Source: a virus (lineage: Duplodnaviria > Heunggongvirae > Uroviricota > Caudoviricetes). From it: a stretch of DNA of 64,000 nucleotides. The notes beneath the pieces are model-generated. The model was not told the DNA's origin. It worked only from the letters and a program-made list of their open reading frames with translations, and searched no databases. The position numbers were made by a program, and so were the translations under genes. The DNA lies in IMG/VR virus record IMGVR_UViG_3300019776_000583, positions 20,162 through 84,161 of that record; one strand, written 5' to 3'. The first letter of the stretch is position 1. Every line of letters begins with the position of its first letter. Below, piece by piece: positions 5,942-46,110 of the stretch.

Positions 5942-5973
5942 ACGTGAGACGCAAGGGCCACCAGGAGTAGACC

Positions 5974-6288
5974 ATGTCACGCAACTACGACGCATCACAA
6001 GTAGGCAGGCCCTACGTCAGGGTCCCTTCGATCCAGATCAAGTACCCGTCCCCGCTGCATGCCACTGTCACCTTTCAGGAGGTGGAGGCTGTCGTTCTGC
6101 AGGATGGCTCGGTGCGCCAGATCGGCGATCTGGGCGAGCGCAGCTTCAGCGTCGACCCCGGTGACATGGACGATGTCCTCCAGCTCCGAGACCCGACGAC
6201 GGGGAACGTCATCCCTGGCGCCACGATGACGGTCCAGCAGCTGATGCTCGGAATGCTTGCGATCATCCGCCGCGAGCAGACGAAGTGA
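5974..6288 (+). CDS. Hypothetical protein (104 aa)
   Basis: AGGAG Shine-Dalgarno. GC3 bias. Confidence 0.6.
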   Translation: MSRNYDASQVGRPYVRVPSIQIKYPSPLHATVTFQEVEAVVLQDGSVRQIGDLGERSFSVDPGDMDDVLQLRDPTTGNVIPGATMTVQQLMLGMLAIIRREQTK

Positions 6289-6761: not shown

Positions 6762-6766
6762 GAAGC

Positions 6767-8359: not shown

Positions 8360-8377
8360 GGATCAAGGAAAGACAAC

Positions 8378-14976: not shown

Positions 14977-15201
14977 CTGCCTGAAGGGGCCACGACTGCC
15001 CTCACAGCCGCTGTAGCAAGGTGCAGCGGATACCAAACACCTTGCAACCTGGAGTTGGACGCACGTCGAGTGCGGCTGGACGCGGGATACGCCTGACGGC
15101 GCCCCGAGCACGTTCACCTTGGCCATAGCCGACAGAAAGTCAGCTCCTTTCGTGACCGCAATTCCGCGGTTGTGGTGAATGCCAAATCGAAAGGAAACAT
15201 C

Positions 15202-16185
15202 ATGGCATCGACTGTTTATGGCGACATCAGCCCGCGTACCGCGGCCTACGCCGAGAAAGAGCTGCTCAAGCGCGGCCTCCCGTTCCTGGTTCTCGAGAAG
15301 TTCGGTCAGAGCAAGCCTCTGCCCAGCAACTCCACCCGGGTGATGAAGTTCCGGCGCTACAACGCGCTGCCCAACACCCCGGTCACCCTGGGTGAAGGCG
15401 TGACCCCCACCTCGACCAACCTGTCCGTGACCGACGTGACCGCCACGCTGCAGCAGTACGGCAGCCTGACGACCATCAGCGACGTCATCCTGGACACCCA
15501 CGAGGACCCGACGCTGCAAGAAGCCGTCGCCCTGCTGGGTGAGCAGGCGGCCCAGATGATCGAGAAGATGCGCTATGGCGTCCTGCGCGCAGGCACCAAC
15601 GTGATCTTCGCCAACGGCGCGACCCGCGGCGCGGTGAACACCGCGATCACCCTGACGCTGCAGCGCCGCGCGACGCGCGCCCTGAAGCGGCAGAACGCCC
15701 GCTTCATCACCAGCGTCATTCGCTCGACCCCGAACTGGGGCACCGAGAACGTGGCTCCGGGCTTCGTCGCGCTGATCCACACGGACTGCGAGGCCGACGT
15801 GCGAGGCCTGAGCGGCTTCGTGCCGGCCGAGAAGTATGGCTCGATGACCCCCTGGGAAAACGAGCTGGGCAAGGTCGAGGACGTGCGCTACGTCAGCTCG
15901 ACGATCTTCGAGCCCTTCATCAACGCCGGCGGCGCGGCCGGCACGATGCTCTCGAGCGGCGGCAGCAATGCTGACGTGTACCCGGTGCTGTTCCTGGCCA
16001 AGGACGCCTACGCCACCATCGCGCTGAAGGGCATGTACGCCCTGACGCCGATGGTCGTGAACCCCAAGCCCAGCGACAGCGACCCCCTGGCCCAGCGCGG
16101 CCACGTCAGCTGGAAGGCGTACCAGACCTGCGTGATCCTGAACGATGCGTTCATGATCCGCGGCGAGGTGGCTGCCACCGCCTGA
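15202..16185 (+). CDS. Major capsid protein (HK97-fold, N4 / epsilon15-like family)
   Basis: AAAGGAAAC Shine-Dalgarno and ATG. FRRYNALPNTPVTLGEGVTPTS motif typical of podophage major capsid proteins. Length of about 330 aa. Position after the scaffold gene. Strong hairpin terminator immediately downstream. Confidence 0.75.
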   Translation: MASTVYGDISPRTAAYAEKELLKRGLPFLVLEKFGQSKPLPSNSTRVMKFRRYNALPNTPVTLGEGVTPTSTNLSVTDVTATLQQYGSLTTISDVILDTHEDPTLQEAVALLGEQAAQMIEKMRYGVLRAGTNVIFANGATRGAVNTAITLTLQRRATRALKRQNARFITSVIRSTPNWGTENVAPGFVALIHTDCEADVRGLSGFVPAEKYGSMTPWENELGKVEDVRYVSSTIFEPFINAGGAAGTMLSSGGSNADVYPVLFLAKDAYATIALKGMYALTPMVVNPKPSDSDPLAQRGHVSWKAYQTCVILNDAFMIRGEVAATA

Positions 16186-18676: not shown

Positions 18677-20302
18677 ATGCCGACGATTGTCGTGAAGGCA
18701 TTCGGCGGCATGAGGCCCATTCTGGAGCCTCAGCTGCTGGACCCGTCGGAGTCGCAGGTGGCGCAGAACGTGCGCCTGATCAGTGGTGCCATCGCCCCGC
18801 TGCGAGGCGCGACCACCATGCGCGCAGCCTCCATCGCATCTCCGCAGACCATCTGGCGGTTCGGCGACAGCGCGACCGAGAATGAATGGTGGCTCGAGTT
18901 CGCAGGCCGCGTCGACGTCATCCGATCGCCCATCCCATCCGACCCGTGGGGCAGAACCTACTGGTCCGACGGCGCGACCGCGAAGTACGCCCCAAGCTCC
19001 GTCCTCCTCTCTGGTGGTGGCACACTGCCTGGGGCAAGCTACACGCTCGGCGTGCCGGCCCCAACGGTGGCCCCAACCGTCTCTGGCACCGCCAGCACGG
19101 CGTCCACATCGGAGACGCGGTCCTACGTCTACACCTACGTGTCGGCATACGGCGAGGAGGGGCCCCCATCGCCGCCGTCGGCGCCTCAGTCGCTGGACCC
19201 CACTGCCGCGGTGACGCTGAGTGCGATGCAGACCGGGCCATCGGGCTCGTACAACATCACCCTCAAGCGCATCTATCGCACGTCCACCGTCGGCTCGACG
19301 GCGCAGTTCCAGTACGTCACCGAGATCCCGGTGGCCACGGTCAGTCACGTCGACACCAAGAGCCAAGCCCTCCTTGGCGAGGTGCTCGCTACAGAGGACT
19401 GGAGCCCGCCCCCTTCAGGCCTTACGGGCCTGAAGATGCTCGCCAATGGCGGTGCGATTGGATTCGTCGGCAACACCGTCTACACCACCGAGCCCAACCT
19501 GCCTCACGCATGGGCCCACTCGACAGCCATCGAGGAGAAGATCGTCGGCCTTGGCGTGTTTCGCCAGGGTGCCGTGCTGCTCACGAACGGATACCCCTAC
19601 ATCTACACCGGGGCGGACCCGTCGGCCATGACGCCGGAGCGCCTGGAGAGGCCCCTTGCCCTGATGTCAAGGGCGAGCATCGTCGATACCGGAGATGGCT
19701 GCCTGTACGCATCCTCCGACGGCCTGGCATCGGTTGGGTCTGGAGGCGGCGAGATCGTCACCAAGGCCCTCATCAGCCCGGAGCAGTGGCGCGCGTACAA
19801 CCCGTCTTCGATGGTGGCCGCGGTGATCGACGGCCGATACCACTGCCTGTACACAAACACGAGCGGCGTGCGCGGCATGCTGATCTTCGACTTTGATGGT
19901 GGCGGCGCCAAGTTCACAAGCTGCGACTTCAATACCGCGGCTGCAGTCTCTGCGCTGTACCCAGACCCGCGCACTGGCACGTTGTACATGGTGCAGTCGG
20001 GCAACATTATCAGGTTCGATCGAGGAGCCTCTTTGACGGCCACCTGGCGCAGCGGCATCTACCGCCTCGCGTCGCCGGCCAACATGTCGTGCTTCGCAGT
20101 TGATGCGGCAGCCTACCCCGTGACGCTGAAGGTCTACGCCGACGGCGCCTTGGTGCACACGGCAAGCGTCGCATCTCGCCTTGCTGCGCGCCTGCCTGCC
20201 GGATTTGAGGCGACAGACTGGAGCTTCGAGCTCTCCGGGACCGCCAAGATCACGCGCATCGTCCTGGCGACGTCCATGTCGGAGCTGAAGGCTGTTTCGT
20301 GA
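18677..20302 (+). CDS. Tail tubular / nozzle protein candidate (541 aa)
   Basis: GGGAG Shine-Dalgarno. Position matches T7 gp11 / gp12-like genes. Confidence 0.5.
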   Translation: MPTIVVKAFGGMRPILEPQLLDPSESQVAQNVRLISGAIAPLRGATTMRAASIASPQTIWRFGDSATENEWWLEFAGRVDVIRSPIPSDPWGRTYWSDGATAKYAPSSVLLSGGGTLPGASYTLGVPAPTVAPTVSGTASTASTSETRSYVYTYVSAYGEEGPPSPPSAPQSLDPTAAVTLSAMQTGPSGSYNITLKRIYRTSTVGSTAQFQYVTEIPVATVSHVDTKSQALLGEVLATEDWSPPPSGLTGLKMLANGGAIGFVGNTVYTTEPNLPHAWAHSTAIEEKIVGLGVFRQGAVLLTNGYPYIYTGADPSAMTPERLERPLALMSRASIVDTGDGCLYASSDGLASVGSGGGEIVTKALISPEQWRAYNPSSMVAAVIDGRYHCLYTNTSGVRGMLIFDFDGGGAKFTSCDFNTAAAVSALYPDPRTGTLYMVQSGNIIRFDRGASLTATWRSGIYRLASPANMSCFAVDAAAYPVTLKVYADGALVHTASVASRLAARLPAGFEATDWSFELSGTAKITRIVLATSMSELKAVS

Positions 20303-22959
20303 GCCGGTCGACCAAGGTCCCGTCACTTCCGTCCCCGACGCCCGCCAACTCACTGGAGTTCGCCAAGGCGGTGAAGGGCGTGCTCGACGTGAGAGAAGGC
20401 CTCGCTGGTGACCCCCTCGATGCCAACGTCACCCTGCGCGAGCTGGCCGATGGCGGGATCATCAGCGTGTCGCGCACCAGTACCGGCGGGATCGGATCAC
20501 TGCTCCCTGTTGGCGGCGGAGATGGCGCAAGCACCCTTCCCGACCTGACAACGCCTCCAGCACCGACGGGTCTTTCGGCATCCGGCGCTCTCACCAGCAT
20601 CACGCTGCAGTGGGACTCATGGCCGTACAGCAACCACGCCTTCACTGAGGTGTGGAGATCCGCTACAACCAGCTTCGGCGCAGCGGTGCTGATAGGCACG
20701 AGCTCGACGAGGTTCTACTCGGACGCGGTTGGAAGTACTGGCAAGACGTACTACTACTGGATTCGATTCAGGTCGATGGCGGATGTTCCTGGGCCTTACA
20801 ACTCGGTCAGCGGGACTCCAGCATCAAGCGGTCAGGACGTTGGCCTGCTGCTCTCGACGCTGAGCGGCCAGATCACGGAAACGCAGCTCTTCTCTTCGCT
20901 GAACACCCGCATCAACCTGATAGACGGCCCATCAACCACAACGGGCACGGTGGCGGCTCGAGTCAAGACAGAAACGGATGCCCGCGTTGCCGCGCTGACG
21001 GCAGAGGCTGGGTACAGATCGTCAGGTGATGCGACCACCTTGGCCAGCGCTCAGACTTACGCTCAGACATGGTCCTACAGCAAGTCGACCGTGGACAGCG
21101 CAATCGCTGCTCAGGGGACGTCGCTGACGACGGCCTTCACCAACGCTGACGCGACAAACCTTACCAGCGCCAATACCTACACTGCGACATACGCCTACAG
21201 CAAGTCTGCGGTCGATAGCTCACTCAGCTCTTTGAATACATCAATCCGCGCCGACTTTGCTGCCGCGGATAGCACCACTCTTGCATCGGCCAATTCATTT
21301 ACCTACAGCCGGGCGACCATCGATGGGGCAATCTCATCGAGCGCCTCCACTCTGACGGCCGCGTATCAGGCGGCCGATAGCACCACACTGACGTCGGCGA
21401 AGAACTACACCGAAAGCTATGCCTATTCAGCATCCGCCGGATCCGCCACAGCCGGCAATGTCAGCACCCTCACCGCCAGGCTCAACAACTTCAACGGGTC
21501 AGGTGTAAGTGTAGAGACCAGCACATCCGCCACAGCGAGCACTGCAAACGGCCTGGCCGGCCTGTACTCGGTGAAGATGGACCTCAACGGTTTCGTCAGC
21601 GGATTCGGTCTCCAGTCAAGTCTGATTACTGGCGGAACCCCGACCAGTACATTCATCGTCAACGTCGACAAATTTGCTTTGACGACGCCCACCTCGTCGG
21701 TAGCAAACTGGTCTGCATCGACGGCCATCGCACTGAATGCGGTGCGAGGGATCTCGGGCGTCAACGACAAGCTGTTGGTGTGCAAGGTTGCAGGAACGAC
21801 TGGAGGCAGCGCTCCATCGATAGCAGGTAGCGTCGGCACTCGCGTGATCGACGGCGGCGTGACCTGGCAGATCGGTAGCCGCGTTCCGTTCTCGTCCCTC
21901 ACCGTCCCTACGTCGATCAACGGAGCGACCGTCCCCGCTGGCACCTACATTGATGGCGCATACATACTCAACGCCACCATCAACAGTGCCCAGATCGGCA
22001 GCCTTGCTGCCGACAAGATCACGGCCGGCTACACCACCAGCGTAGACCTAGAGAGCGGCGTCTTTGCCGGCTCTGAGTTCTACATCGGAGGCACTGTCAC
22101 CTACGAGTACAGTGACGCAACGGCCCCGACAAAGAAGACAGGCATCGCGAGCGTCTCCAGCCCGAACGTCGCACTGAACACTTCCGGCGCCCTGTTCAAC
22201 TCTGCGTACTTCAAGATTTACAACGGGTCGACTTACGAGACCCCATTCGAGGTCGTCGGCGGTGCCGTCAAGATCAAGAACGCATACATTCAGGATGCGT
22301 CGATCACGACGGCCAAGATCAGCGACACGATTCAGTCGACGAACTACAGTTCATCTGCTGGATGGCAGATCAACAAGAGCGGCACAGCGACGTTCAACCA
22401 AGTCTCGGTGAGGGGGGAGCTCAACGTCGGGGCCATGACTGGTTGGGCATGGCCCGCGGCTGGCCAGTCTGGCGCCCACCTTGGCCCCAACGGCCTGTTG
22501 ATCGGAAACGCCAACGACAACAGGTACTTCTATGTCAACGTAAACGGAGACATATCGGCCCCTGGGCTCACGATCTCAGCTGGATCTGCGTCGTTCAGCG
22601 GGACCCTTTCCGCAAACATCGTCAACACCAATCAGATCGTTGGCGGAGCCACTTCGGTTGGGGCGTCGGCCACATCTGCAGGGGCGTCAGTGAGCGTGAC
22701 GGTCAGCGTTCCTGCTGGCGCATCGGCGATCCTGATCGAATACTTCCTTGGGCCTGACACGGTGACATACACAGGAGGAGGCGGCAAGGATGGCGGTGGC
22801 GGCTACACCTATGGTCCGATCATCGCAGGACTGACAGACAACGGATCCACGACTGGGGCGATCATCATCTCTCCATCCGCTGGCAACCATACGATCACCC
22901 TCTCTCGGTCTTACTACACCGGAACAATGCGCCTTGGCGTCATGGTCCTCAAGCGATGA
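20299..22959 (+). CDS. Large tail protein (886 aa) with an FN3-like domain and tandem fibre repeats
   Basis: GTG start overlaps the upstream stop. FN3-like segment LQWDSWPYSNHAFTEVWRS...YYYWIRF. About 7 tandem repeats (DATTLASAQTYAQTWSYSKSTVDSAI...). Confidence 0.6.
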   Translation: MSRSTKVPSLPSPTPANSLEFAKAVKGVLDVREGLAGDPLDANVTLRELADGGIISVSRTSTGGIGSLLPVGGGDGASTLPDLTTPPAPTGLSASGALTSITLQWDSWPYSNHAFTEVWRSATTSFGAAVLIGTSSTRFYSDAVGSTGKTYYYWIRFRSMADVPGPYNSVSGTPASSGQDVGLLLSTLSGQITETQLFSSLNTRINLIDGPSTTTGTVAARVKTETDARVAALTAEAGYRSSGDATTLASAQTYAQTWSYSKSTVDSAIAAQGTSLTTAFTNADATNLTSANTYTATYAYSKSAVDSSLSSLNTSIRADFAAADSTTLASANSFTYSRATIDGAISSSASTLTAAYQAADSTTLTSAKNYTESYAYSASAGSATAGNVSTLTARLNNFNGSGVSVETSTSATASTANGLAGLYSVKMDLNGFVSGFGLQSSLITGGTPTSTFIVNVDKFALTTPTSSVANWSASTAIALNAVRGISGVNDKLLVCKVAGTTGGSAPSIAGSVGTRVIDGGVTWQIGSRVPFSSLTVPTSINGATVPAGTYIDGAYILNATINSAQIGSLAADKITAGYTTSVDLESGVFAGSEFYIGGTVTYEYSDATAPTKKTGIASVSSPNVALNTSGALFNSAYFKIYNGSTYETPFEVVGGAVKIKNAYIQDASITTAKISDTIQSTNYSSSAGWQINKSGTATFNQVSVRGELNVGAMTGWAWPAAGQSGAHLGPNGLLIGNANDNRYFYVNVNGDISAPGLTISAGSASFSGTLSANIVNTNQIVGGATSVGASATSAGASVSVTVSVPAGASAILIEYFLGPDTVTYTGGGGKDGGGGYTYGPIIAGLTDNGSTTGAIIISPSAGNHTITLSRSYYTGTMRLGVMVLKR
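21020..21500 (+). repeat. Tandem degenerate amino-acid repeats of about 25-30 aa (tail-fibre collar-like) inside the 886-aa tail protein
   Basis: Repeating xADxTTLxSAxxYxxxYAYSKSxVDSxI units visible in the translation. Confidence 0.6.
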
Positions 22960-23345
22960 AGCACTTTGTCATTCACAACGCCGCAGGAGAAATCTTGCGC
23001 TCCGGCATCTGCCAGAATGAGACGTTTGATCTGCAGGCCAATGGTCCCGATGAGTTCGTCATTGAGGCCCAGGCAGACCCAGAGACAGACGCGGTAGATC
23101 CGGCGACCGGGGAGGTTGTCGTCAGCGGAAAGCCGCCGCCTCCGATCGACATGGATTACCGCAAGGCTCGACTGGATGCGTACCCCGGAATCAACGAGCA
23201 GCTCGACATGCTGTGGCATGCGATGGACCGCAACGAGATGGTCAAAGCCGAGCCCTTCTACAGCCGGATCAAGGCCGTCAAGGACTCCTACCCGAAGGAC
23301 AACTCTGTCGCTCCTGGTTCCGTGATCATCTACCAGATGGAGTGA
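22956..23345 (+). CDS. Tail-fibre-assembly / chaperone-like protein candidate (129 aa)
   Basis: ATGA overlap with the upstream gene. Position downstream of the fibre gene. Confidence 0.4.
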   Translation: MKHFVIHNAAGEILRSGICQNETFDLQANGPDEFVIEAQADPETDAVDPATGEVVVSGKPPPPIDMDYRKARLDAYPGINEQLDMLWHAMDRNEMVKAEPFYSRIKAVKDSYPKDNSVAPGSVIIYQME

Positions 23346-23366
23346 ACCTTGACTACACCAAGGCGC

Positions 23367-23876
23367 ATGTGGAGAGCGGAGAACAACAAGTCCGCAAGAG
23401 TCGAAGAGATGGATTGCTTTGGCTGGAGGGTGCACCGTCACGTGCTGCCGGTCGGGTCGTGCATGGTCGTTGTTGCGACTCACCAGATCGATCGATCGGA
23501 GGCTCCGAACAAGGCTCTCTATGTGAGGGGGCGTGGCGTCGTCACCAACAGCCTCGGCGGACAGTTCGACGACCGAACTCCGGGCCTGTTCACGGGGGCA
23601 AGGCCTGACCATCCGGCCGGAACAACAAGGATCCTTGCCGCCGAGGAGCTTGAGTTCTGGTGCTTCAACTGGCACGCGAACCGCGGCGCGCTGCCGGACG
23701 CTGAACCCCTGATCGCCATGAACGCGGAGCCGGTTGAACTGGCGGCCGGCCAGCGCGTCCTACTCTGCGCCGGCTCGCTTGGGCCGCACTCCGTTGGCCC
23801 TTTCGTTGCGACTGGCGAGCCGCTCGTGGCGGCCGGCGACGTGTACGGATTTCTGATTGGAGCGGATCGTGGGTAA
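23367..23876 (+). CDS. Hypothetical protein (169 aa)
   Basis: ORF with moderate GC3 bias. Start uncertain (TTG at 23349 or ATG at 23367). Confidence 0.4.
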   Translation: MWRAENNKSARVEEMDCFGWRVHRHVLPVGSCMVVVATHQIDRSEAPNKALYVRGRGVVTNSLGGQFDDRTPGLFTGARPDHPAGTTRILAAEELEFWCFNWHANRGALPDAEPLIAMNAEPVELAAGQRVLLCAGSLGPHSVGPFVATGEPLVAAGDVYGFLIGADRG

Positions 23877-23889
23877 GCAGCCTCTGTGG

Positions 23890-24603
23890 ATGATCTCTGT
23901 TGGCCACCTGGTGGGCCTGGCCGCCATCGTCGCCGGGCTGACTCTCGTCGCCACCGGAACCTCCAGCGCCTGGTGGCTACTCCTGTGGCCAGCGTTCCAT
24001 GTGCTGGGGTCGCTGATGCTGTCGGTTGGCCTGCACAGGTATTTCTCGCACGGCGCGTTCAAGACGACGAGTGCCTGGCACAACTTCATGGCCTTCTACA
24101 GCGTGCTGCTACTCAACGGCAGCCCGCACGGTTGGGCGGCGGCGCACAACACGCACCACGCGCACTCCGACACTGACCGCGACCCGCACATGGCCGGCTT
24201 GAGCTACCTGGCCTGGAAGCGCTACCGCGATGTCCCCATGGTGAGCCGAGGCGTGCGGCGCCTGGCCGGCGACAGGACGCTCGCATTTGTGCATCGCAAC
24301 GGCCTGTGGCTCTGGGTTGGATTCACGGCGTTGGCCCTGGCCATCTCCCCCGAGGCCTACCTATTTGGCTACCTGATGCCGCTTGGCAGCGTCCACCTGA
24401 TCGGTGCTCTTCACCAGGTCACGAGCCACTCCGGGGGATCTGCGCGCGACATCTGGTGGCTCGAGCTGCTGCTTCCGGCTTGCGGCGAGTGGCTTCACAA
24501 GACCCACCACGACCACCCAGGCCGAGCTGACTACCGCACGAAGTGGTGGCACCTGGACCTGGGCGCGCTCTTCATCAACGCGATTCGCACGGATAGGCGC
24601 TGA
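23890..24603 (+). CDS. Membrane fatty-acid desaturase / hydroxylase-superfamily protein (three His-boxes); candidate lysogenic-conversion moron
   Basis: Hydrophobic N-terminal helices. His-boxes HRYFSH (HxxxxH), HNTHHAH (HxxHH) and HKTHHDH (HxxHH). A GC-rich hairpin and promoter-like sequence lie downstream. Start uncertain: TTG 23857, GTG 23869 or ATG 23890. Confidence 0.65.
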   Translation: MISVGHLVGLAAIVAGLTLVATGTSSAWWLLLWPAFHVLGSLMLSVGLHRYFSHGAFKTTSAWHNFMAFYSVLLLNGSPHGWAAAHNTHHAHSDTDRDPHMAGLSYLAWKRYRDVPMVSRGVRRLAGDRTLAFVHRNGLWLWVGFTALALAISPEAYLFGYLMPLGSVHLIGALHQVTSHSGGSARDIWWLELLLPACGEWLHKTHHDHPGRADYRTKWWHLDLGALFINAIRTDRR

Positions 24604-24756
24604 CAAGACAAGCGGCTTCGTTGGCCGCTCAACGCTTCCGAGAAGAAGGTCTACAGGCTCGCGCGGGGCGCCCCCGCGTCCGTGGAATTGGCCTTCGTGT
24701 GCCGGGCTCGCTGACTAGAATCGGCGGCCAGTCAAGGCTCCGCAAGGCTCATCCGC

Positions 24757-25371
24757 ATGACCCAGTTTCTGAACGCCGCTGAAGACAATTCGGGCCCTAG
24801 CCCAGAGGCAGCTGCGCCAGATGATGTCGCCGCGACCGGCGAAAAGTTTCCTCTCGCTGCGCTGCCTGCGTTCGAGAACACCGCGTTTGCGCCGGACATC
24901 CCTTACGAGCTGACCTACGAGCAATTCGAGGCGCTGCCGGTTTCTGAGCAGTGCTTGCGGGCGAGGGCTTTGATCCTTGGTCTCCAGGAGTGGATCTGCG
25001 AGCAGGATGGTTCCTTCGGGGCCGATGCAATCACGCCCATCCATCGATTCACGCGAGGCGGCATGTACTGCCGCGAGTTGACGATGCCAGCTGGCCTCCT
25101 GATCGTCGGAAAGCGGCACTCGAAAGAGCACCTGGTTGTCATGACAAAGGGCGCATGCACACTCTTCACTGAGCGCGGTCGAGAGGAGTTGTCGGGTTCC
25201 ACAACATTCATCTCTCCGGCCGGAGAGAAGCGTGTTCTCGTCATTCACGAAGAGACAACCTGGCTGACTGTGCATTCCACGCCCTATACAGACCCCGCAC
25301 TTGTTGAGCTGGACATCACCATTCCCGAGGTGCGCGACGTTGCGCGCCGCAATATCCTGGAGGCGCCATGA
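24757..25371 (+). CDS. Hypothetical protein (204 aa)
   Basis: ORF with GC3 bias, preceded by a 153-bp intergenic region with a promoter-like TTGGCC...TAGAAT. Confidence 0.5.
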   Translation: MTQFLNAAEDNSGPSPEAAAPDDVAATGEKFPLAALPAFENTAFAPDIPYELTYEQFEALPVSEQCLRARALILGLQEWICEQDGSFGADAITPIHRFTRGGMYCRELTMPAGLLIVGKRHSKEHLVVMTKGACTLFTERGREELSGSTTFISPAGEKRVLVIHEETTWLTVHSTPYTDPALVELDITIPEVRDVARRNILEAP

Positions 25372-26330
25372 CGCTGGTTTATGTAGGCATTGGCAGCGCG
25401 GTTATCGGAGCCGCCGGAACCGCTTACGCATCGAACAAGGCCGCCAAGACCGGCAAGGCCGGCATAGACGCACAGCGCGAAATGGCCAGCGAAGCCAACG
25501 CACTGAGCAAGGAACAGTTCGACTGGAATAAGTGGGTGTACGAGAACGACATCGCCCCGGCCAACAAGGCCAACCAGGAGATGCAGTTCCTCATTGCCGA
25601 GGACTACCTCGACACCTCGAAGACCAACAAGGACTTCGCGAACGAGCAGCGCGACGAGTACAGGAAGACCTACCTTCCGAACGAACGTCGCGTGGCCGAT
25701 GAGGCCGCCAACTACGACTCGAGCGAGAACGTAGGCCGGCGTAGCGGCATGGCAGCAGCTAACGTCAACCAGCAGTTCAGCAACGCCATTGGTCAGCGCA
25801 CGCGCGCTCTAGGCCGCTACGGCCTGACCTCCACGGCTGGCGGCAATCAAGTTGCGAAAGACTCATTGGCTCAGGCTGCTACCGCCAGCGGCGCGGCCAC
25901 TGGAGCGGCCTTTGACACCCAAGACAAGGCAATCTCCCTTCGCAGCGGAGTGGCCAACTTTGGCCGCAACATGCCAAACACTGCCGCACAAGCCAATGCC
26001 ACAGGCAACGCTGCGAATGGTGGCGCATCTTCCACGAGCCAGCTCTCAGCCAATGCAGCCGGAGCTGGCGCATCGTTCATGAACGGCGCTTACAACAACC
26101 GGGTCGGCGGCATGAACTACTACGGCAACGTGATGGGCGCCACTGGAGCTCGTGAGTCCGCGCTGTGGGGAAACGTCGCCCAGGGCTTGGGAAATCTGAC
26201 TGGGTCCATCGTTCAGGGCAACGGCGGGTGGGGGGCAATGGGAAGCAAGATCGGCGGCATGTTCGGTGGCGGCGGCATGGACACCGGCAACTACATGCCG
26301 GCCGGTGAGTACATCGGAGGGGGGATCTGA
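25368..26330 (+). CDS. Internal virion (ejection) protein candidate with an N-terminal transmembrane helix (320 aa, Gly/Ala/Asn-rich)
   Basis: ATGA overlap with the upstream gene. N-terminal TM helix LVYVGIGSAVIGAAGTAYA. Position matches T7 gp13 / gp14. Confidence 0.55.
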   Translation: MTLVYVGIGSAVIGAAGTAYASNKAAKTGKAGIDAQREMASEANALSKEQFDWNKWVYENDIAPANKANQEMQFLIAEDYLDTSKTNKDFANEQRDEYRKTYLPNERRVADEAANYDSSENVGRRSGMAAANVNQQFSNAIGQRTRALGRYGLTSTAGGNQVAKDSLAQAATASGAATGAAFDTQDKAISLRSGVANFGRNMPNTAAQANATGNAANGGASSTSQLSANAAGAGASFMNGAYNNRVGGMNYYGNVMGATGARESALWGNVAQGLGNLTGSIVQGNGGWGAMGSKIGGMFGGGGMDTGNYMPAGEYIGGGI

Positions 26331-28135
26331 TGAGCTTCGGACTACTGGCTGGCATCGCCGGCGCATTCCCCGCCATTCAGCGAGGCATGGACGATCAGAA
26401 AGCTCGCGACCAGGCCGACGAGGACCGCAAGTTCCAGCTCGAGCAGCGCGAGGCCGCGAAGGCTGATCGCGCCTTCGGGCTGCAGCAGCGGGACCGCCAG
26501 GTTGCTGAGCAGAACCGCCAGGACAACCTCAACCGCGAACTGGCTGCGGTGCCGCAGACGCGCGAGATCGAAGTCACCAAAGACCAGCTCAACGAGGACT
26601 CTGCAGGCAACACCTGGATGGCTCCGACCAAGGTCAAGTCAACCGTCGCTGCGCCCGAGTGGGTCAAGTTCAAGTCCACCGCTGAAGTGCTTCGCAGGAA
26701 CCAGGAGTTTGAGAAGGCTGACGCCTACGAGGCGATGTCCAAGAAGGCTCAGTTCGCCGACTCGGCCCAGCGATTCCATCGCCTCAAGTCCGGCGCCGCT
26801 GGAATGTCACTCGAGCAGCTCGCCAAGGCCGCCTCCGACATCTACAACAACGACCCCCTCCCGGCGCAAATTGAGAGCGCGACGCCGGTCGCCGGCGGCA
26901 TGCAAATCACCGTCAGGAACAAGGACACCGGCGTGTCGGACAGCATGGTCGTCAAAGACCAGGCCGAACTGCTTCAACGCCTGGAGGCCTACTACAGCCC
27001 CGACACCTACGCGAACTACCTGCAACTGCAGGACAAGAGAGCAGCTGAGCTCGCTAAGCCTCGGAAGCTGGCTCCTGGGGAGATTGAGGTTGTGGGTGCT
27101 GCGCCTGGGCGCAACAACAACCCCACGGCCGCTCAAGTGCGGGCTGCTGCGGGCGGTGCTGGCGGTGGCGCCGGTGCTGGAAAGATGCCGGCAACGGTGT
27201 ACGACCAGGCTCGCAACATGATGAACGATTCTTTCGGCAAGAACGACACACCAGCACAGGTGCGCTCCGATGCCGAGAACTACCTCGATCGAGTTGTAAG
27301 GACCAATCCTGGTATTTCAGCCGCGCGCGCACAACGCATCGCTATCGCAGGCGCTTTGGACCCGTCCAAGCACACCCCCCACTTCAACCCGGCCACTGGT
27401 CAGATCGACATTGCTGTCGTCGATGATGACAAGAAGCCATACACGATTACTCCGAATGCATTCTCACCGGAGGAGGTTGCATCTCCGGAGTTCAAGAAGC
27501 GGTTTCCTCAGGCTGACATAAAGGCAACCGCCGAAGGCCTTATCAGGGCGACGGCGGGCGGCGACAAGGACAAGGAGCGGGCCATTCGTTCTGCCGCATT
27601 CGACCCGGCTGCGCAGAAGAAGTTCTTCGATGAAGCCCAGGCGGAGGCTGACAAGGCCGTTGCCGAGGCCCTTGCAAAGAACGCCAAGCTGCCAAAGCCA
27701 GAGCCCGAGGAGGCCATCAGGGCTCGTGCGCAGGCCGGCATGGAGGAGTGGTCTGGAAACATGCGGCGCAAGCTGGACTTGGTGTCCAAATTTGCCGACC
27801 CGCCGAAGGTTGAGGCCCCCAAGAAGGCCCCGCCGTCGCCAAGGCCCGCAAATGACTTCGGCCTTGGCGCCACAAGACCGATCGATCAGCAGTCCTATTT
27901 TGGCCTGAGCACTTTCCAGGCCAACGAGCTGGCAGCTCGACAGGCGAGAGATGCGCGCGCAGCGATGCCGCCGCGAGCCTCTGTCGACCGAGCCGCGGCC
28001 GACAGAGATCCAGACATCACCCGGCTTCGCCGTGAAGTGCAGGGCGCACTGCGCGCCGGCAAGTCCGTCGAGGCCAACAACAAACTCGCCGAGATAAAGC
28101 GCATCGAGCAAGAGCGCCACACGCGCGTCCAGTGA
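26330..28135 (+). CDS. Internal virion (ejection) protein candidate (601 aa)
   Basis: TGATG start/stop overlap. Position just before the giant SLT-containing protein, as for T7 gp15. Confidence 0.55.
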   Translation: MSFGLLAGIAGAFPAIQRGMDDQKARDQADEDRKFQLEQREAAKADRAFGLQQRDRQVAEQNRQDNLNRELAAVPQTREIEVTKDQLNEDSAGNTWMAPTKVKSTVAAPEWVKFKSTAEVLRRNQEFEKADAYEAMSKKAQFADSAQRFHRLKSGAAGMSLEQLAKAASDIYNNDPLPAQIESATPVAGGMQITVRNKDTGVSDSMVVKDQAELLQRLEAYYSPDTYANYLQLQDKRAAELAKPRKLAPGEIEVVGAAPGRNNNPTAAQVRAAAGGAGGGAGAGKMPATVYDQARNMMNDSFGKNDTPAQVRSDAENYLDRVVRTNPGISAARAQRIAIAGALDPSKHTPHFNPATGQIDIAVVDDDKKPYTITPNAFSPEEVASPEFKKRFPQADIKATAEGLIRATAGGDKDKERAIRSAAFDPAAQKKFFDEAQAEADKAVAEALAKNAKLPKPEPEEAIRARAQAGMEEWSGNMRRKLDLVSKFADPPKVEAPKKAPPSPRPANDFGLGATRPIDQQSYFGLSTFQANELAARQARDARAAMPPRASVDRAAADRDPDITRLRREVQGALRAGKSVEANNKLAEIKRIEQERHTRVQ

Positions 28136-28169: not shown

Positions 28170-31100
28170 ATGAAGAACAGCCTGACACCGTTCACCGCAG
28201 ATGACCTACTTGCCGCACCTCAATCCGGCCAGGCTTCTCAGCCGGAGAGCGGCACCGCTGCCATCTTCGATGCGCTGCTGTCGCAAGAGTCCGGCGGCCG
28301 GCAATTCGACAAGAATGGCGCCCCCATCACGAGCTCAGCTGGCGCCGTCGGCATCGCTCAGGTCATGGAGAAGACGGGGCCCGAGGCCGCTGCGCTGGCG
28401 GGCCTGCCGTGGGATCGGGATCGGTGGCAGCGCGACGCCGACTACAACAAGGCGATCGGCAACGCCTACTTTCAGAAGCAGCTGAACGAATTCGGAAACG
28501 TGCCTCAGGCGCTGGCTGCCTACAACGCAGGCCCTGGCGCGGTTCGGCGCGCGGTAGCACTTGCGCAGCGCGACGGCCAGCCGGACGCCTGGCTTGCAAA
28601 GCTGCCAGAGGAGACTCGAAGCTACGTGCCGGCCGTTCTGTCTCGTGCCGGCGTCCCGATGCCGGCCGGCGCAGCCGAGCCCGACAAGCAGTACTACGGC
28701 ACTCCGTCGAAGGAGTTCATCCCTCTCGCCTCCAGGAAGCCTGGAGCGACTGCCGGCGACTTCGTGCGCGAGTTCATCGCGTCTGGAGCCTCTGGCATTG
28801 GCTCGATCATTCAAGCTGGCGGAGAGGTGGCTGCAGCCGTGGCCAACAAGGTCAGCGGCACCAACGACTACGAGGGAAAGAACGTCTTCGCGGGGACTGC
28901 CGATTCACTGCGGCAGAACATGACGGAGGGCGGCCGAGCGGCCCTCGCAGACAGCAACATCGAGGGAAGCCTCGCCGACCTGTCTTTGGAGAAGCTGCCG
29001 AGCTCCCCCCAGGCCTGGGGGATGCTGACGGCAAACGTCCTTGGGTCATTGGCCTCGACGATGATCCCGATGGTCGGCCCGATGGCGCGCGTCGCATCTA
29101 CAGCCAAAGCTGGGGATGTTGCCCGCCTGGCATCCGCGTCTCGTACGGCAAAAGTGGCTGGCGCCGGATTCGGTGCTGCGCAGACCGGGGGCGCTGCTGC
29201 AGAAGAGGTTCGCAAGAGCGCCGAGAAGGCGATCTCCGGCATGACTCACGAGCAGCTGATGTCGTCAGTCCCGTCCTACGCTCAGGCGTTCGGCGAAACA
29301 GGCGACGAGGCTCAGGCAAGGTCTGCTGTTGTGAACTCCGCGGCGCAGCTCGCCGGCATGGGTGCGGCCGTGTTTGGTGCGGTCGGCGGCGCAGTCAACG
29401 CAAAGGTGATCGAAGACATCATCTTGAAGCAGGGCATCACGAAGATGCTCGGAAACAAGTTGCCGACGCGCCTCGCTGTTGGGGCCCCTGTTATTGGGAT
29501 GGCTGAAGGCGGGCAAGAGGTCTCCGAGAAGGTTGGGCAGAACATTGGTGAGGACCTGGGCCTCGGCCGAGATCCGATGGCTGACCCGCTGCGGGACACT
29601 GCTGGTGACTTCGTTGGCGGCATGATCGGCGGCAATGCTGTCGGCGGCGTTGCGGCGCTTCGGCGGCCTGAGATGGATCCCGTGGCGCGCAAGGCATCGG
29701 AGCCAAACAGCCCGTTGTCCAAGGCGGCAACTCAGGGTGTGATTGCCACCGATGCTGCGCCGCAGCCCGCGTCGCCAGCCCCCGTAGACCCGGCCCAGCG
29801 CCTGGCCGAGCTCGAGGCCATCGGCCAGCAGGGCGGCGTCTTCACGCCCGGGCAGCAGCAAGAATACGAGGCACTCAAGGGCGCCCGAGACGCTACCCCT
29901 GGCGCCGTGCCCGACGAGATCGGCCCGCGCGCCATGGCCGCTCGCGACGCCCTGCGCGTCGACCGCAGCCTGATGGATGCGCTGCGCGCAGACACCTCCC
30001 CCATCAAGCCCTCGGCCCTGCTGAAGGACCTGTCGATCGCCACTAGCAAGAGTGCTCAGCCCGCCATGCGCGAGCAGGCCCTGACGCGCGTCGAGATGGC
30101 AATGGAGTGGGCCAGAGCGAACCCGGCCCCGACGATCGAGACGGGGATCGAGGAGATCTCCGGCTTCTCCGGCGGCGAAGATCGCCCGACCGGCCCGCGG
30201 CCGACCGCGACTCAGCTGCGCGCCGGCGTCGACCGCGACGCCGAGCTGATTGGCCAGCGCGATGGCGGCCTGGCTAATCCGGCCGGCCAGCGCTCCCGCG
30301 ACGAGGCCGACCGCCGCGAGCAGGCCGCGATCGACATCGAGTCCGCGCCCAACGCTTCGCCCGAGGTGCTGGACCGCGCCGTAGCGCTGCGCCAGCAGGC
30401 CGCGAGCCTGCGCCGCCGGGCCGACGAGATGGACGCTCAGCCAGGCGCTGGCGGCACGTCTGGCGTTGGCTTTGCCCGCGACCGCGCCGGCATCGACGAG
30501 CAGCGCCAGGCAAACCTCGAGCGCAACATGCGCGCGCCGGCCGCTACGGCCGCTCCCGCCGCACCGGCGCCCGTCGCCGTCACAGCCACCGACCAGGCCC
30601 GCCTGGAGTCCGCAGCGCTGGCCGGCAAGGACGCCCAGCGCCGCGCTGAGGACAGCCCCCGCCAGGTCATCATCGACCGCGCGCTGCGCAACGTCGAGGA
30701 GCGCGGCGGCGTGGCCAGCCCGGCCGAGGCCCGAATCTTCCAGGAGGCCGGCGTCGGCAAGCCGTACGACCGCATCGACGAGAGCCTGGCCGGCGAGCCC
30801 TCGACCGACCAGCAGCTCACCGGCGCGACCGGCATCGCGCTGGGCCGCGCCCCGCGCGAGAGCTTGCGCCAGGGCCAGCAGTCCGAAGCCGACCTGATCG
30901 CCCGGGAGCAGCGCGACCGCAGCGACAGCCGCATGAAGGCTCTGGCCGCCGAGCGCGCCGCCACCCAGGCCGCACGCCCGGGCGAGAGGGCTGCAGCGCC
31001 GGCGCCCTCCGCCGACGACGTCATCGCCGCCCTGAAGACAATCCCGGCCCTCCGCACGGCCGAGCAGAAGTCGCTGGTCGACATCGCGCGCCGCAACTAC

Positions 31101-34100
31101 ACCGTCGAGCAGATGCGCGTCATGAACGATGCCGCCGTCAACCCGGCGAACCTGAGCGCGACCGACAAGTTGCAGCTGCAGCAGATCCGCAAGTCCGAGG
31201 AGCGTGACGCGGCGCTGCTGGCCCTGCCCGACGTCGCCATCCCGGCTGGCAATGGGCCCGCCTTCATCCGCAAGCGCAAGGCCCAGATCGAGGCCGCCGC
31301 TGCCCAGGGCTTCGAGACCGTTGAGCGCCGCGACGGCGTATTCGTGATTCGCAATTCGCGAACGGGCGCTGAGATGCGCCTGTCTGGCCGTGCCGACGCA
31401 GCGCTGGCCCGCGAGGCCATCCGCAAGATGGTCGACGAGCGAGCTCACGCCGCCGCCACCAGCCCGAAGAACGACCGCAAGGATCCCAGTTGGGCCCAGA
31501 TCGACGCGATCAACTGGAAGAAGGGTGACCCGATCCCATTGAACGGCGTGACCGTTCGCATCGAGAACCCCGTCGGCTCCATCCGCCGCGCACGCCCTGA
31601 TGCGCCGGTGCAGTGGAAGACCACGATGAAGCACCACTACGGCGAGATCGCCGGCACCAAGGGTGTCGACGGCGACCCGGTGGACGTCTTCGTGGGGCCG
31701 AACCCCGCAAGCCCGAAGATCTGGGTGATCGACCAGGTCACGGAGGGCGGCAAGCTCGACGAGCACAAGGTGATGTTCGGCTTCGACAGCGAGTCGGCCG
31801 CGCGCGCCGGCTACCTGTCGAACTTCAGCAGCGGCTGGAAGGGCCTGGGCAACATCACTGAGATGACCCAGGACGAGTTCCGCGCCTGGATCAAGGACCA
31901 GGGCGCCACGATGGCGCCGGCTGCCGAAGCCGCGCCGGCCCAGCAGGATGATGCTGAAAAGGCAACGACCGGCGCCGCAGAAGCGGCACCCGACATCGCC
32001 ACCGAAGTCGAGCCCGAATCCGGCTCGTTCACCGTCCGCATGGATGGCAAGAACGTGCGCTTCGAGCGCCGCGGTGTGGACGCGCTTGGAGAGACCGAGT
32101 CGCCTGAGCGAGACGGCAAGGCCACCCGCATCAGCAAGAAGTCTGCAGCACTCATCAAAGCCATCGCAAAGGCGCTGGGCAAGAAAGTCGTCTTCTTCGC
32201 TGACGTGAGCGGCGTGCGCCCTGGCGACGGCTTTGTGGTTCCGAACGAACCTAACACGATCTATTTGAATGAGATCTCAACGATCAGCCCTATGGCCGTC
32301 ATGGGCCATGAGTTCCTGCATACCCTTCGCCTGACCAACCCCAAGGCCTGGGACGCGATCGCGGCCGTCGTCAAGACCAGCGTGAAAGACCCCAAGGGAT
32401 TCCGCAAGGACTACTACGGCGCCGAGAAGGGCGAGAAGCGCGGAGACGGCGCGCTGAGCGAGGAGCAGGGCGGCGAGCTCGAGGAGCTGGTCTCCGACCT
32501 GGGTGGCAACCTGATGACCGACCCCAAGTTCTGGGAGGAGGTCTTCGCCAAGATCCGCGCCGACAACGGCAAGGACGCAAAGGGCATCATCGCCCGCCTG
32601 ATCGCGACGCTCCAGTCGATGATCGACAAGATCGCCGGCACGGTGAAGGGCCGGAAGTTCAAGGCCGACGACCCCGAGAATGGCTTCGTCACCGACCTCG
32701 ACTCCATCCGTGCGGCCTACCGCGACGGCCTGGCGGCCTACCTGCAGCAGAGCGGGGAGTCGAAGGCGGGCATGCAGGCGGAGGTGCTGAAGTCGCGGGG
32801 ACGCGTCGGATTCAGTGAGATTTCCAAGAAGTACCTGGAAGGCTGGCCGCCCGGCTTGCGCGTAGATTACCGCGGCACAGAGGCTTACTACGCAATCAAG
32901 CGATTGCCATACAACGACAACGCCAGCGCGCAGAAGGAGCTTGGCGTCAAGTTCAGTGGCGACATGATGGCGGACATCGGAGCTACCGTGGCGGCAGTTG
33001 CTGCGCGCGACGGATTCCCAGGACTTGATCGCGCACCTCGGATTCCCGTCTATAGCGCAATGCTCAGCGAGATGCAGCTGCGGCAGGCCGGTCGCGGCTA
33101 CATACAAGTTCTGCCCACCGTTGTGGATACAGAAAACGTAGAAACCCTCTACGTCAACTGGTCCAGCGGGTCCTCTGAAGATGAGGTTCGATCCGCCGCC
33201 AGGGCGGAGGCCGCCAACCAGCGCCTGAACAGGATCTTTTACGGGCCATCAAGCGGGGTTGTTTCAGGACTGGAGTCTGGCGCTGTATCGCGAGACCCGT
33301 CAGCCTGGGCGGAGGCGATGGCAACGGCACTCTCCGTGACGGCGCGAGCAACGCCCAAAAAGCAGTCGGCAGAGTGGGGGCGTTCATTTGGTGAGCGCAT
33401 GTGGTCCAGGATGCCTGACAAGTTCGTCGTGGGCGTCTTTGAGGATCTCGGCTCCGACCACCCCGACAAGAGAGCAGAGCTCGCCAAGTGGAGGGCCAGT
33501 GAGTCTGACCGCAAGGAGGCGGTGCGCGCAAATCGCGACTGGGAAAACCGCCCCCTGTACCAAAAGATCCTTGACGCCGTGCGCGGCACACGGGGCCCCG
33601 GATCTGACGAGGCACGCCGATCGCCAGAGCGCGGCATGACGGTCACCGGCTATCACTTTAGCCGCGAGCCTCGCAAGGCCCTGAGTTCAGCGACGCATGG
33701 CCAAGGTTTGCAGGACGCCAACCGCGAGCAGTTCCAGGACGCAGAAGACCAGCGCATTCGCCAGCGGATCTACTTCTACGTCGACAAGGGCACCGGCATC
33801 ACTCCGCTGCCAGGCCTTGGCACGCACGCTCACCGCACGAAGCTGTCTGGCGTGTACGACATGAACAAGGACGCGCTCGGCCTGAGGCGCGGGAAGTCTC
33901 TCGCGGACTTCGAGAGCTCTGTGCTGGACGCGGGGTACGATGGATACCTGGACCGCCGAGACGGCACGCAGCCTGGCGTCGTCATCATGCTGGGCAAGCG
34001 CTCGATCACCCCCGAGTACCTTGGAATGATGGGCTCGATCAAGGACGGTGAGAAGCTGCCTGGCGCAGTGGCCCCCGCGGTTGAGCGCCCCCCGATCTCC

Positions 34101-45015: not shown

Positions 45016-46110
45016 GTGGCAAGCATCAAGCAAATGGGCCCGAAGTCCTGGCGCGTGCAGATCCGACGCAAGGGACACAAGACGATCACCAAGACCCTCA
45101 CCACTGAGCGGCTGGCCAAGCAGTTCGCCGCAAGGGTAGAGGGTGACATCGAAGACGGCAAGCCGCCCACCGTCGGCACGGACATCACGGTCAGCCAGGC
45201 AGTCGAGGCCTTCCGGGAGCTGCGCGACACCGGCCAGCGCCCAGTGGCGCGCGGCTCGACCGAGTTCTACATGCTGCGCCATCTCGAGGAGGGCATGGGC
45301 GGCTGGAGGGTCGATGCGGTGACGCCGCAGAGGCTGGCCTCCTGGGCCCGCTCGCGCATGGACGAGGGCGCCGGCCCAGCCACCATCGGCATGGAGGTCT
45401 CCAAGCTGGGCACCGTGATGCGGCACGCCAGCGCGTGGCTGCGCACGCCGCTGCCAGACATCGTGGCGCCGGCCCGGGCGCTGCTCGAGTATTCAGGCCT
45501 GGTGGGCCCCAGCCAACACCGAGAGAGGCGGCCCACAGAGGACGAGTTGGTCCGGCTACTCGAGATCGCTGACCCGACGATGCAGGACCTGATGCTGGCC
45601 GCCATCCTGACGACGATGCGCCGCGGCGAGCTCACGCGCATCCTGTGGGCGGACCTAGACGAGGAGCGCAAGCTGGTCCTGATCCGCGACCGCAAGCACC
45701 CACGCAAGAAGCAGGGAAACCACATGTGGTGCCCGCTGCTGGGTGACGCGATGAAGGTGCTGAAGCGCCAACCCCACGTCGACGAAAGGATCTTCCCGGT
45801 CGACAACGAGTGGGTCAGCGACACCTTCAAGGCGATGTGCGACCAGCTTGGGATTGAGGACCTGCACTTTCACGACCTGCGTCATGAAGGCACGAGCCGG
45901 CTATTCGAGGCCGGCTACCGGATCGAGCAGGTCCGCCTGGTGACAGGCCACAAGAAGCTCGAGAACCTGATGCGGTACACCAACCTCAGGCCAGAGCACC
46001 TTTCTTCGCCGCCGCCCGTTTTTGGTCCAGGTAATCCGCCACGTCTCGGTGGTCAGCCCAGCGCTGCCCCTGATCCAGGTACGTCGGGATCGGAAATCGA
46101 TCCTCGCTGA
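45016..46110 (+). CDS. int: Tyrosine recombinase / phage integrase
   Basis: GGAGG Shine-Dalgarno and GTG start. N-terminal arm-binding-like domain. C-terminal HDLRHEGTS (HxxR) and LMRYTNL (catalytic Tyr). Unusual ~45-aa C-terminal extension. Confidence 0.9.
   Translation: MASIKQMGPKSWRVQIRRKGHKTITKTLTTERLAKQFAARVEGDIEDGKPPTVGTDITVSQAVEAFRELRDTGQRPVARGSTEFYMLRHLEEGMGGWRVDAVTPQRLASWARSRMDEGAGPATIGMEVSKLGTVMRHASAWLRTPLPDIVAPARALLEYSGLVGPSQHRERRPTEDELVRLLEIADPTMQDLMLAAILTTMRRGELTRILWADLDEERKLVLIRDRKHPRKKQGNHMWCPLLGDAMKVLKRQPHVDERIFPVDNEWVSDTFKAMCDQLGIEDLHFHDLRHEGTSRLFEAGYRIEQVRLVTGHKKLENLMRYTNLRPEHLSSPPPVFGPGNPPRLGGQPSAAPDPGTSGSEIDPR

Follow-up and report, generated by a model that had tools for sequence, protein, structure and literature searches.

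A predicted minimal SCD1-type membrane desaturase travels with a cupin-fold partner beside the tail-fibre genes of temperate phages

The tail module of a temperate phage carries a gene for a small membrane desaturase, predicted to belong to the stearoyl-CoA desaturase (SCD1) type, which together with the adjacent gene for a cupin-fold protein (g_175) forms an obligate, co-inherited pair. This pair is accessory to the phage, has moved between phage backbones as judged by sequence identities, and recurs beside tail-fibre genes of unrelated kinds. The window, by which we mean the whole stretch of DNA that was analysed, comprises 64,000 nucleotides of a Caudoviricetes virus record (IMG/VR IMGVR_UViG_3300019776_000583, positions 20,162 to 84,161), and its features are collected in Table 1. 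As to what the pair does, we regard the case as evenly balanced that it represents a catalytically competent minimal desaturase with a cupin partner, together acting as a mobile, non-virion module that raises membrane unsaturation.

Table 1. Positions of the features discussed in the text (nucleotides of the window; desaturase residues counted from TTG 23857)
Feature	Position	Strand	Remarks
Portal	11313-13775		podovirus-type structural module
Major capsid protein	15172-16185		podovirus-type structural module
SU10-type adaptor			among the structural genes of the podovirus-type module
p511, tail protein	18677-20302		upstream of the fibre
Tail fibre, 886 aa	20299..22959	+	tail-fibre PHROGs; Pfam Phage_Tail_Tip PF09327
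g_129, small fibre-linked protein, 129 aa	22956..23345	+	4-nt overlap with the fibre stop
g_175, cupin-fold partner	23349..23876	+	175 aa from TTG 23349; directly 5' of the desaturase
Membrane desaturase gene	23869..24603	+	likely start GTG 23869, 244 aa
His box 1, HRYFSH	24034-24051	+	residues 60-65
His box 2, HNTHH	24145-24159	+	residues 97-101
Ninth His, H191, on TM4	24427-24429	+	conserved
His box 3, HKTHH	24496-24510	+	residues 214-218
GC-rich hairpin	24661..24679	+	stem of 8 bp, loop of 3 nt; within the 153 nt that separate the desaturase from g_204
g_204, tail-module gene 3' of the desaturase	24757..25371	+	PHROG 12032, 24280
g_320, g_601, then two giant polyvalent proteins (giant ejected-type)			downstream of g_204
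Tyrosine integrase	45016..46110	+	PHROG 1; Pfam PF00589

The longest open reading frame of the desaturase spans 23857..24603 (+) from a TTG start (248 aa), whereas the source gene call, like the sequence-only reading made before our analysis, opens the gene at ATG 23890 (237 aa). The frame is real and ends at 24603, but GTG 23869 is more likely to be the start than ATG 23890, because a GGAG Shine-Dalgarno sequence lies 7 bases 5' of it and homologues open with MGKQPLWMI. With the GTG start, the gene shares 8 nt, including the stop codon, with the end of g_175. The Pfam score, 71 homologous clusters and the confidence of the structural model (all given below) show that the frame is not a chance ORF. 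The histidine boxes HxxxxH, HxxHH and HxxHH that had been picked out by eye are indeed present (Table 1), and the hydrophobic N-terminal region reported with them can be assigned to a pair of predicted membrane-spanning helices, at residues 11-32 and 38-64. Nine histidines are invariant in 46 aligned homologues (H60, H65, H97, H100, H101, H191, H214, H217 and H218), which we take to be the counterpart of the nine-His di-iron site of SCD1. The spacing of 37 residues between box 1 and box 2 is presumably identical to that in mouse SCD1.

Of the two families proposed for the protein on the basis of these boxes, desaturase and hydroxylase, only the first stands: Pfam FA_desaturase (PF00487) scored 33.4 bits over residues 39-228 (gathering cut-off, 29.7), but FA_hydroxylase (PF04116) gave no match in the Pfam search and was rejected. 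The NCBIfam equivalog for DesA (NF049918) aligned to no more than residues 55-112 and scored 36.7 bits, far below its cut-off of 400; by this measure the phage desaturase is not a DesA orthologue. A profile of the 46 homologues searched against PDB sequences matched human SCD1 (E 7e-19) and mouse SCD1 (2.5e-18) over about 220 positions. The AlphaFold2 model, with a mean pLDDT of 95.4, has four transmembrane helices, the two above and residues 140-163 and 165-190. Foldseek aligned this model with the SCD1 structures 4ZYO, 6WF2 and 4YMK at TM 0.72-0.75 and probability 1.0, and returned nothing else from the PDB, although sequence identity to SCD1 is only 21-22%. On these profile and model comparisons, assignment of the protein to the SCD1-type di-iron membrane desaturases is secure.

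The phage enzyme shares with SCD1 (4ZYO, 4YMK, 6WF2) and with the DesA/DesC-type Delta-9 enzymes the motifs HX4H, HX2HH and HX2HH and the TM4 histidine, and with SCD1 the four-helix transmembrane fold. It differs in size, since SCD1, DesA and DesC have approximately 320-390 aa and the phage protein about 245 aa, without N- and C-terminal cytosolic extensions and with a shorter loop between box 2 and TM3 than that of SCD1. It also differs from SCD1 in that it needs, or at any rate always travels with, a cupin-fold partner. A database search gathered 71 desaturase clusters at 46-100% identity, all of about 240-250 aa, below which identity falls to around 30% and to desaturases of 381 aa. When 1.84 billion representatives were scanned in full with HMMER, 166 proteins matched at E <=1e-30, and nearly all of the best 150 of these 166 matches have 230-270 aa. 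Such mini-desaturases thus appear from these searches to be a broad class, almost unannotated in the sources searched. Fusion partners offered no functional clue, as the long matches P0188 and P0284 are tandem double desaturases with no other domain; within the cassette itself there is no electron-donor domain or donor gene. That the phage protein falls some 100 residues short of SCD1 counts against the account, given below, of a competent enzyme that raises membrane unsaturation.

The partner protein, g_175, is soluble. Its source gene call begins at ATG 23367 and gives 169 aa. It has no Pfam or PHROG family, and its own family of 59 clusters is likewise without a Pfam domain, with no match to the Pfam cupin models; by its fold, it is a double-stranded beta-helix (cupin) protein. 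In a core alignment of 40 sequences, H31 and E102 never vary, and H29 and H109 hardly do. The divergent members (L008, L098, L100, L101 and L104) have other residues in place of these candidate ligands, and we therefore set aside the idea that g_175 is a clear metalloenzyme. Because the putative metal ligands vary across the family, a role as adaptor or substrate presenter seems more likely than catalysis. Two further relationships were considered and rejected, namely with g_204, which carries the PHROG annotation 'tail fibre adhesin' (hhalign probability 0.2%), and with LpxO-type hydroxylases (0.1%). Against a viral fold library, g_175 matched uncharacterised phage proteins only.

The desaturase is not a solitary insert but the second gene of a pair: in every locus with a desaturase at least 36% identical to ours, drawn from Burkholderiales metagenome-assembled genomes (MAGs), metagenome contigs and IMG/VR viral contigs, a g_175 homologue lies immediately 5', making 27 distinct pairs. 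The reverse test, with the g_175 profile against viral contigs, gave 18 loci, and all 18 have the desaturase downstream. Across the 27 pairs the junction between the two genes ranges from -17 to +14 nt, most commonly -8, and the two genes are apparently translationally coupled. Pairwise identities of g_175 and of the desaturase are correlated (r = 0.80), and in a Mantel test none of 2000 permutations reached this value. Taken together, these comparisons indicate that g_175 and the desaturase are an obligate, co-inherited two-gene unit.

The window around the pair is a podovirus-type structural module in which the genes run in the order fibre, g_129, g_175, desaturase, g_204, g_320, g_601, giant proteins and integrase. 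The location first proposed for the desaturase, between tail-fibre genes and internal virion proteins, was thus correct, with the fibre on its 5' side and virion and giant ejected-type proteins on its 3' side. The view that the phage is temperate also held, because the window encodes a tyrosine integrase; in addition, one relative is integrated in the chromosome of a Hydrogenophaga MAG. For the tail protein p511, short-tailed temperate phages of the Stx2 type and phages of Aeromonas and Achromobacter have counterparts at about 34% identity, and 365 phage records match it, including Ralstonia and Burkholderia phages. On the 5' side of the pair, the C-terminal tip of the fibre (approximately residues 780-886) recurs only in loci with g_129, as judged by subject-coordinate BLAST. 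The g_129 family ends in the motif YRxxRxxxYPxxxEQLDxLW and has PHROG matches of unknown function. A viral scan returned 255 relatives of g_129, and full-length homologues occur without the pair in L248-251, L254 and L255. Membership of g_129 in the enzyme module was accordingly rejected; because its presence varies with that of the fibre tip and many phages have it but not the pair, we assign it to the tip, probably as its partner or chaperone. On the 3' side, g_204 has no solved structural relative. Several relatives that lack the pair keep g_204 homologues, with g_320 (for example L184, L186, L190 and L207), so that g_204 and g_320 mark the downstream edge of an accessory slot.

Using p511, we found 30 viral loci that span the p511-to-g_320 interval, of which only five carry the pair. 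The desaturase is therefore not a conserved structural component, as had been anticipated from the sequence. The identity of the desaturase does not follow that of the backbone: in L089, p511 is 34% identical and the desaturase 72%, and in L172 the values are 51-55% and 51%. In the Hydrogenophaga prophage the pair is placed after a lambda-type gpM-gpL-gpJ tail. These patterns point to horizontal mobility between phage backbones. The slot from the fibre to g_320 varies from 4.0 to 10.3 kb among relatives, and in L200 it holds other cargo, with a Phage_tail_APC chaperone at the position analogous to that of the pair.

In all loci whose 5' neighbour could be classified, a tail-fibre gene precedes the pair, with 0-2 small ORFs in between. 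The fibres that precede it include the Phage_Tail_Tip type of the window, gpJ-like proteins, proteins that match tail-fibre PHROG families with the annotation 'long tail fiber protein distal subunit' (L096, L097 and L100), and a fibre resembling those of Burkholderia phages DC1 and BcepIL02 (L092). In a locus from a Bacteroidota MAG (L008), the pair sits between a 'host specificity' fibre on its 5' side and, on its 3' side, a 2OG-Fe(II) oxygenase with a collagen-like fibre. By these annotations the pair recurs beside at least four unrelated kinds of fibre in two phyla, a non-random position. The link to fibres does not extend to all viral mini-desaturases, an association that we considered and rejected: those sampled at about 30% identity have no g_175 and lie outside fibre loci, their neighbours including ribonucleotide reductase, taurine dioxygenase, ketoacyl synthase and an LpxO-like gene. 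Some of these distant enzymes have an ACP-like ORF on one side, as read in L114, and a beta-ketoacyl synthase on the other, as found by Pfam in L107; in L116 the neighbour is an LpxO-type Asp_Arg_Hydrox gene. The ACP-like and ketoacyl synthase neighbours, like the Delta-9 enzymes of cyanophages, support acyl-chain chemistry in the wider class.

A position directly behind the fibre gene could mean that the pair takes part in fibre maturation or virion assembly, either as a membrane-anchored platform or through lipid modification of the fibre protein. Genes straight after fibre genes usually encode chaperones or adhesins, g_129 behaves in this way, and the chaperone of L200 occupies the corresponding place. 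Yet the other 25 of the 30 backbone relatives build their fibres without the pair, and the invariant, complete di-iron site points to catalysis on a lipid-like substrate and not to scaffolding. Because most relatives do without the pair and the catalytic site does not vary, we consider a role in fibre assembly highly improbable, and we know of no precedent for a desaturase with such a role.

The pair might alternatively be a passive hitch-hiker, metabolic cargo serving homeoviscous or cold adaptation, whose place beside the fibre would reflect only that no other part of these genomes recombines and tolerates insertions so readily. We rate this as unlikely in itself, and as about as likely as the envelope conversion discussed below. 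The length range of the slot and the other cargo in L200 are in keeping with it. Desaturases are also on record as auxiliary metabolic genes of cyanophages and of viruses from cryopegs (PMC5776448, PMC7300359), and a temperate Yersinia phage carries a desaturase and an acyl-CoA oxidase as strain-specific cargo (PMC9224151). Hitch-hiking does not readily account, however, for an association that holds across unrelated backbones, across phyla and in all 27 pairs, nor for the related mini-desaturases elsewhere in viral contigs that are not linked to fibres, and it leaves the obligate cupin partner unexplained.

The pair's repeated place next to unrelated fibres, which extends to a phage of Bacteroidota, hints that its function is tied to host recognition, a tie for which 'membrane fluidity' by itself offers no explanation. 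The pair may alter the acyl chains of envelope lipids (phospholipid, lipid A or ornithine lipid), a conversion of envelope or receptor that comes close to the lysogenic conversion proposed in the sequence-only reading and that we hold to be doubtful although worth weighing; its suggested effect, that the lysogen or cell debris would adsorb or admit related phages less, or that surface properties would shift, is doubtful to the same degree. The strict adjacency to the fibre kinds listed above argues for such a conversion, as do the absence of cupin-less distant mini-desaturases from fibre loci, the prediction that the desaturase is an integral membrane enzyme, and the temperate nature of the phage. 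The LpxO-type gene beside the L116 desaturase and the 2OG oxygenase that follows the L008 pair are further points in its favour, and there is a parallel with P22 gtrABC, Sf6 oac, T5 llp and cor, all of which adjoin receptor-binding genes. Several observations weigh on the other side. The pair accompanies many fibre tips instead of co-varying with one, and because it travels with so many different tips, one specific receptor as its target is disfavoured. No promoter or terminator of its own was found, its genes being packed in a late string, and PADLOC finds nothing for the cassette, with g_129, g_175 and the desaturase all lacking a match in PADLOC-DB v2 at E up to 0.1. Moreover, an acyl desaturase facing the cytoplasm changes buried acyl chains and not exposed epitopes. 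That the pair is a fibre-linked module for envelope-lipid conversion, in which the cupin selects or presents the acyl substrate and the lipid change controls phage adsorption or DNA entry, strikes us as unlikely. If true, it would provide superinfection exclusion or protect progeny from debris, as a lipid-level counterpart of O-antigen seroconversion, and the module would spread with host-range cassettes across phage types and phyla.

Whether the desaturase deserves the name moron, as the sequence-only reading proposed, depends in part on transcription signals. The GC-rich hairpin that had been noted at about 24660 is present; it has no T tract, was not called by a terminator scan, and belongs to an intergenic region whose fold as a whole is unremarkable (z = -0.99). 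A promoter-like element claimed after the desaturase was not recovered, as a sigma-70-type scan of 20000-26500 gave no match. The distance from the desaturase to the gene that follows is no more than approximately 35 nt in about half of its relatives. The GC content of the gene is 0.654 against 0.642 for the window, and its GC3 is 0.84 against 0.81-0.91 for core genes. The gene is accessory, as a moron should be, but it has no detected promoter or terminator of its own and no compositional shift, and it overlaps its neighbours; the name fits only if taken loosely, to mean accessory cargo. The simplest reading, and the most likely, is that the desaturase is co-transcribed with the late tail genes, because the pair sits in the tightly packed, same-strand gene string of the fibre. 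As the scan covered the sigma-70 consensus only, the fibre gene, g_129 or g_175 may contain a promoter of divergent sequence, and expression in the lysogen is hence possible.

Morons are well known 3' of fibre and tailspike genes, for example lambda lom, phi80/N15 cor, P22 gtrABC and Sf6 oac. Like them, the pair is accessory, has a membrane product, lies beside a receptor-binding gene and is found in some relatives. Unlike them, it has no detected promoter or terminator and no shift in composition, it overlaps its neighbours, and its desaturase belongs to a class that acts on acyl chains and not on O-antigen or a protein receptor.

We return to the reading that we prefer, that of a mobile module raising membrane unsaturation outside the virion. 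In this account, the desaturase would be a stripped-down stearoyl-CoA-desaturase type that has four membrane helices and its nine-His di-iron site on the cytoplasmic side, and it would be made together with g_175 as a single accessory module. The module would move horizontally between backbones within the recombination-prone tail-fibre region and would be expressed with the late tail genes. Using O2 and an electron donor of the host, the enzyme may introduce a cis double bond, Delta-9-like to judge by its motifs, either into acyl chains of the host's own membrane lipids or into one that g_175 presents to it. The outcome would be greater membrane unsaturation in the infected or induced cell, presumably to the benefit of the phage. 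Hosts of the Comamonadaceae type make unsaturated fatty acids by the anaerobic FabA/FabB route, and for this reason the gain from an extra Delta-9 desaturase is not obvious.

Unlike the host-derived cyanophage vFAD type, the desaturase shows no close relationship to a host enzyme: no close host desaturase was found among 185,579 species genomes. In the contig scan of these genomes a single-protein query confirmed nothing, whereas an alignment-based query found relatives. Close relatives occur in only four Burkholderiales-type MAG contigs, each with phage cassette genes, and the next match, at 37%, is a Bacteroidota MAG contig with the pair inside a phage structural module. After it come cellular genomes at 24-31%, and the nearest cellular sequences outside the paired clade are 27-32% identical. 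Among 50,697 deposited phage genomes, tblastn found only Pelagibacter phage Mosig, at 27% identity, and megablast of 20-30 kb for related deposited phages found none. The deposited podophages of the Stx2/933W type and of Burkholderia, Achromobacter and Ralstonia (about 58-63 kb), whose proteins are about 34% identical to p511 and which the window further resembles in its giant ejected-type proteins downstream, include none with the paired desaturase by tblastn.

Phage desaturases as such are already known, from cyanophages (PMC5776448), cryopeg viruses (PMC7300359) and a temperate Yersinia phage (PMC9224151). For the cyanophage enzymes vFAD-I/II, Delta-9 desaturation of lipids has been confirmed by experiment (Roitman et al. 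2018, PMC5776448); Phyre2 linked the FADs of cryopeg and sea-ice viruses to SCD1 4ZYO (Zhong et al. 2020, PMC7300359). Both groups have in common with the phage enzyme described here the three His motifs, the accessory status and the superfamily (PMC5776448, PMC7300359). The vFADs belong to cyanomyophages and the cryopeg FADs to contigs of about 220-230 kb, and they cluster with host DesC and lie among metabolic genes. The paired clade, in contrast, is found in temperate podo- and siphophages of Burkholderiales, in fibre loci, paired with a cupin and without a close cellular homologue. A literature search found no description of a fibre-linked or cupin-paired phage desaturase. The novelty lies in an enzyme of minimal architecture that has an obligate cupin partner, is linked to fibres, and has no close homologue in cells and no close relative among the 50,697 deposited phage genomes.

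To conclude, the desaturases of phages have until now been seen as metabolic helpers that lytic marine phages took from their hosts, and the paired clade places them in the host-range region of temperate freshwater and soil Burkholderiales phages and in that of one or more phages of Bacteroidota. As an SCD-type desaturase that is minimal by nature, the enzyme could aid studies of structure and mechanism in a family that does not lend itself easily to them. Should the pair alter envelope lipids and thereby influence how phages enter or lyse the cell, lipid desaturation would join the routes by which phages remodel the cell surface.

In L107 and L114, a beta-ketoacyl synthase gene (matching PF00109/PF02801 in L107) comes after a mini-desaturase of ~30% identity to the desaturase of the window, and in L114 an 87-aa ORF, putatively ACP-like as read from its DSM motif, precedes the mini-desaturase. 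The same layout is shared by L115, L117, L119, L120 and L160, where a similar ORF of ~380-400 aa comes after the desaturase. Viral contigs with this layout are often very large, and these loci look like a phage fatty-acid synthesis mini-cluster. The association of a desaturase with an oxygenase is a recurring theme: an LpxO-type Asp/Asn beta-hydroxylase (PF05118) lies after the desaturase in L116, and in L008, from a Bacteroidota phage, a 2OG-Fe(II) oxygenase comes next after the cupin-desaturase pair, just ahead of a collagen-like fibre gene. Mini-desaturase paralogues also occur three to five in tandem, in viral contigs and in one Bdellovibrionales chromosome, and two homologues (P0188, P0284) are double desaturases, fused in one protein.

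Features of the window and of related loci
Locus	Feature	Coordinates	Details
Window	Large ORF upstream of portal	3869-5941 (+)	690 aa
Window	Large ORF upstream of portal	6527-8359 (+)	610 aa
Window	Fibre tip and g_129	22600-23345	
Window	Fibre and g_129	20299-23345	GC 0.58-0.60; GC3 0.69-0.75
Window	g_204	24757-25371	As fibre and g_129
Window	Giant 'polyvalent' protein	28170-37499	3109 aa; SLT, InPase, ART-PolyVal, DUF7178
Window	GC peak	30001-31000	Within 3109-aa ORF
Window	HNH endonuclease	37509-38015	Between giant genes
Window	Giant 'polyvalent' protein	38012-44629	2205 aa; ART-PolyVal, LPD38
L096	Second cassette layout	8637-9463	
L097	Second cassette layout	8630-9465	
L100	Second cassette layout	8721-9559	
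L172	Second cassette layout	5148-5977	
L200	Post-fibre slot	5757-7747	Also L213
L107	Ketoacyl synthase locus	9693-11874	
L114	Ketoacyl synthase locus	9636-11790	
L148	Tandem array	6770-10660	
L009	Tandem array	7516-10762	
L111	Tandem array		
L153	Tandem array		
L116	Desaturase-oxygenase locus	10725-11378	
L008	Desaturase-oxygenase locus	10782-11780	

Elsewhere in the window, the two large ORFs upstream of the portal, where a terminase would be expected, had no PHROG or Pfam match. Both giant proteins have the look of multi-toxins or effectors that are ejected; the GC peak within the larger one (0.75 vs 0.64 window-wide) is probably a low-complexity segment.

The final ~100 residues of the tail fibre and the small fibre-linked protein g_129 are found together in the window and in L005, L007, L087, L089, L090, L094, L095, L098, L099 and L171, and the C-terminal ~50-aa domain of g_129 occurs in >200 viral contigs, frequently as a tiny stand-alone ORF. 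GC and GC3 of the fibre, g_129 and g_204 are below those of the core genes and the desaturase, in line with these host-range genes having been exchanged more recently. In a second cassette layout, the fibre gene is separated from the cupin-desaturase pair by an ORF of ~150 aa and then one of ~126 aa, and the second of these matches DUF7936 in L096. L200 is a backbone relative without the desaturase, and after its fibre come a Phage_tail_APC chaperone, an ORF with weak similarity (E 1e-4) to the cupin-fold partner g_175, and an ORF of 214 aa that matches no family. Therefore, the slot occupied by the desaturase pair may also hold other cupin-plus-enzyme cargo.
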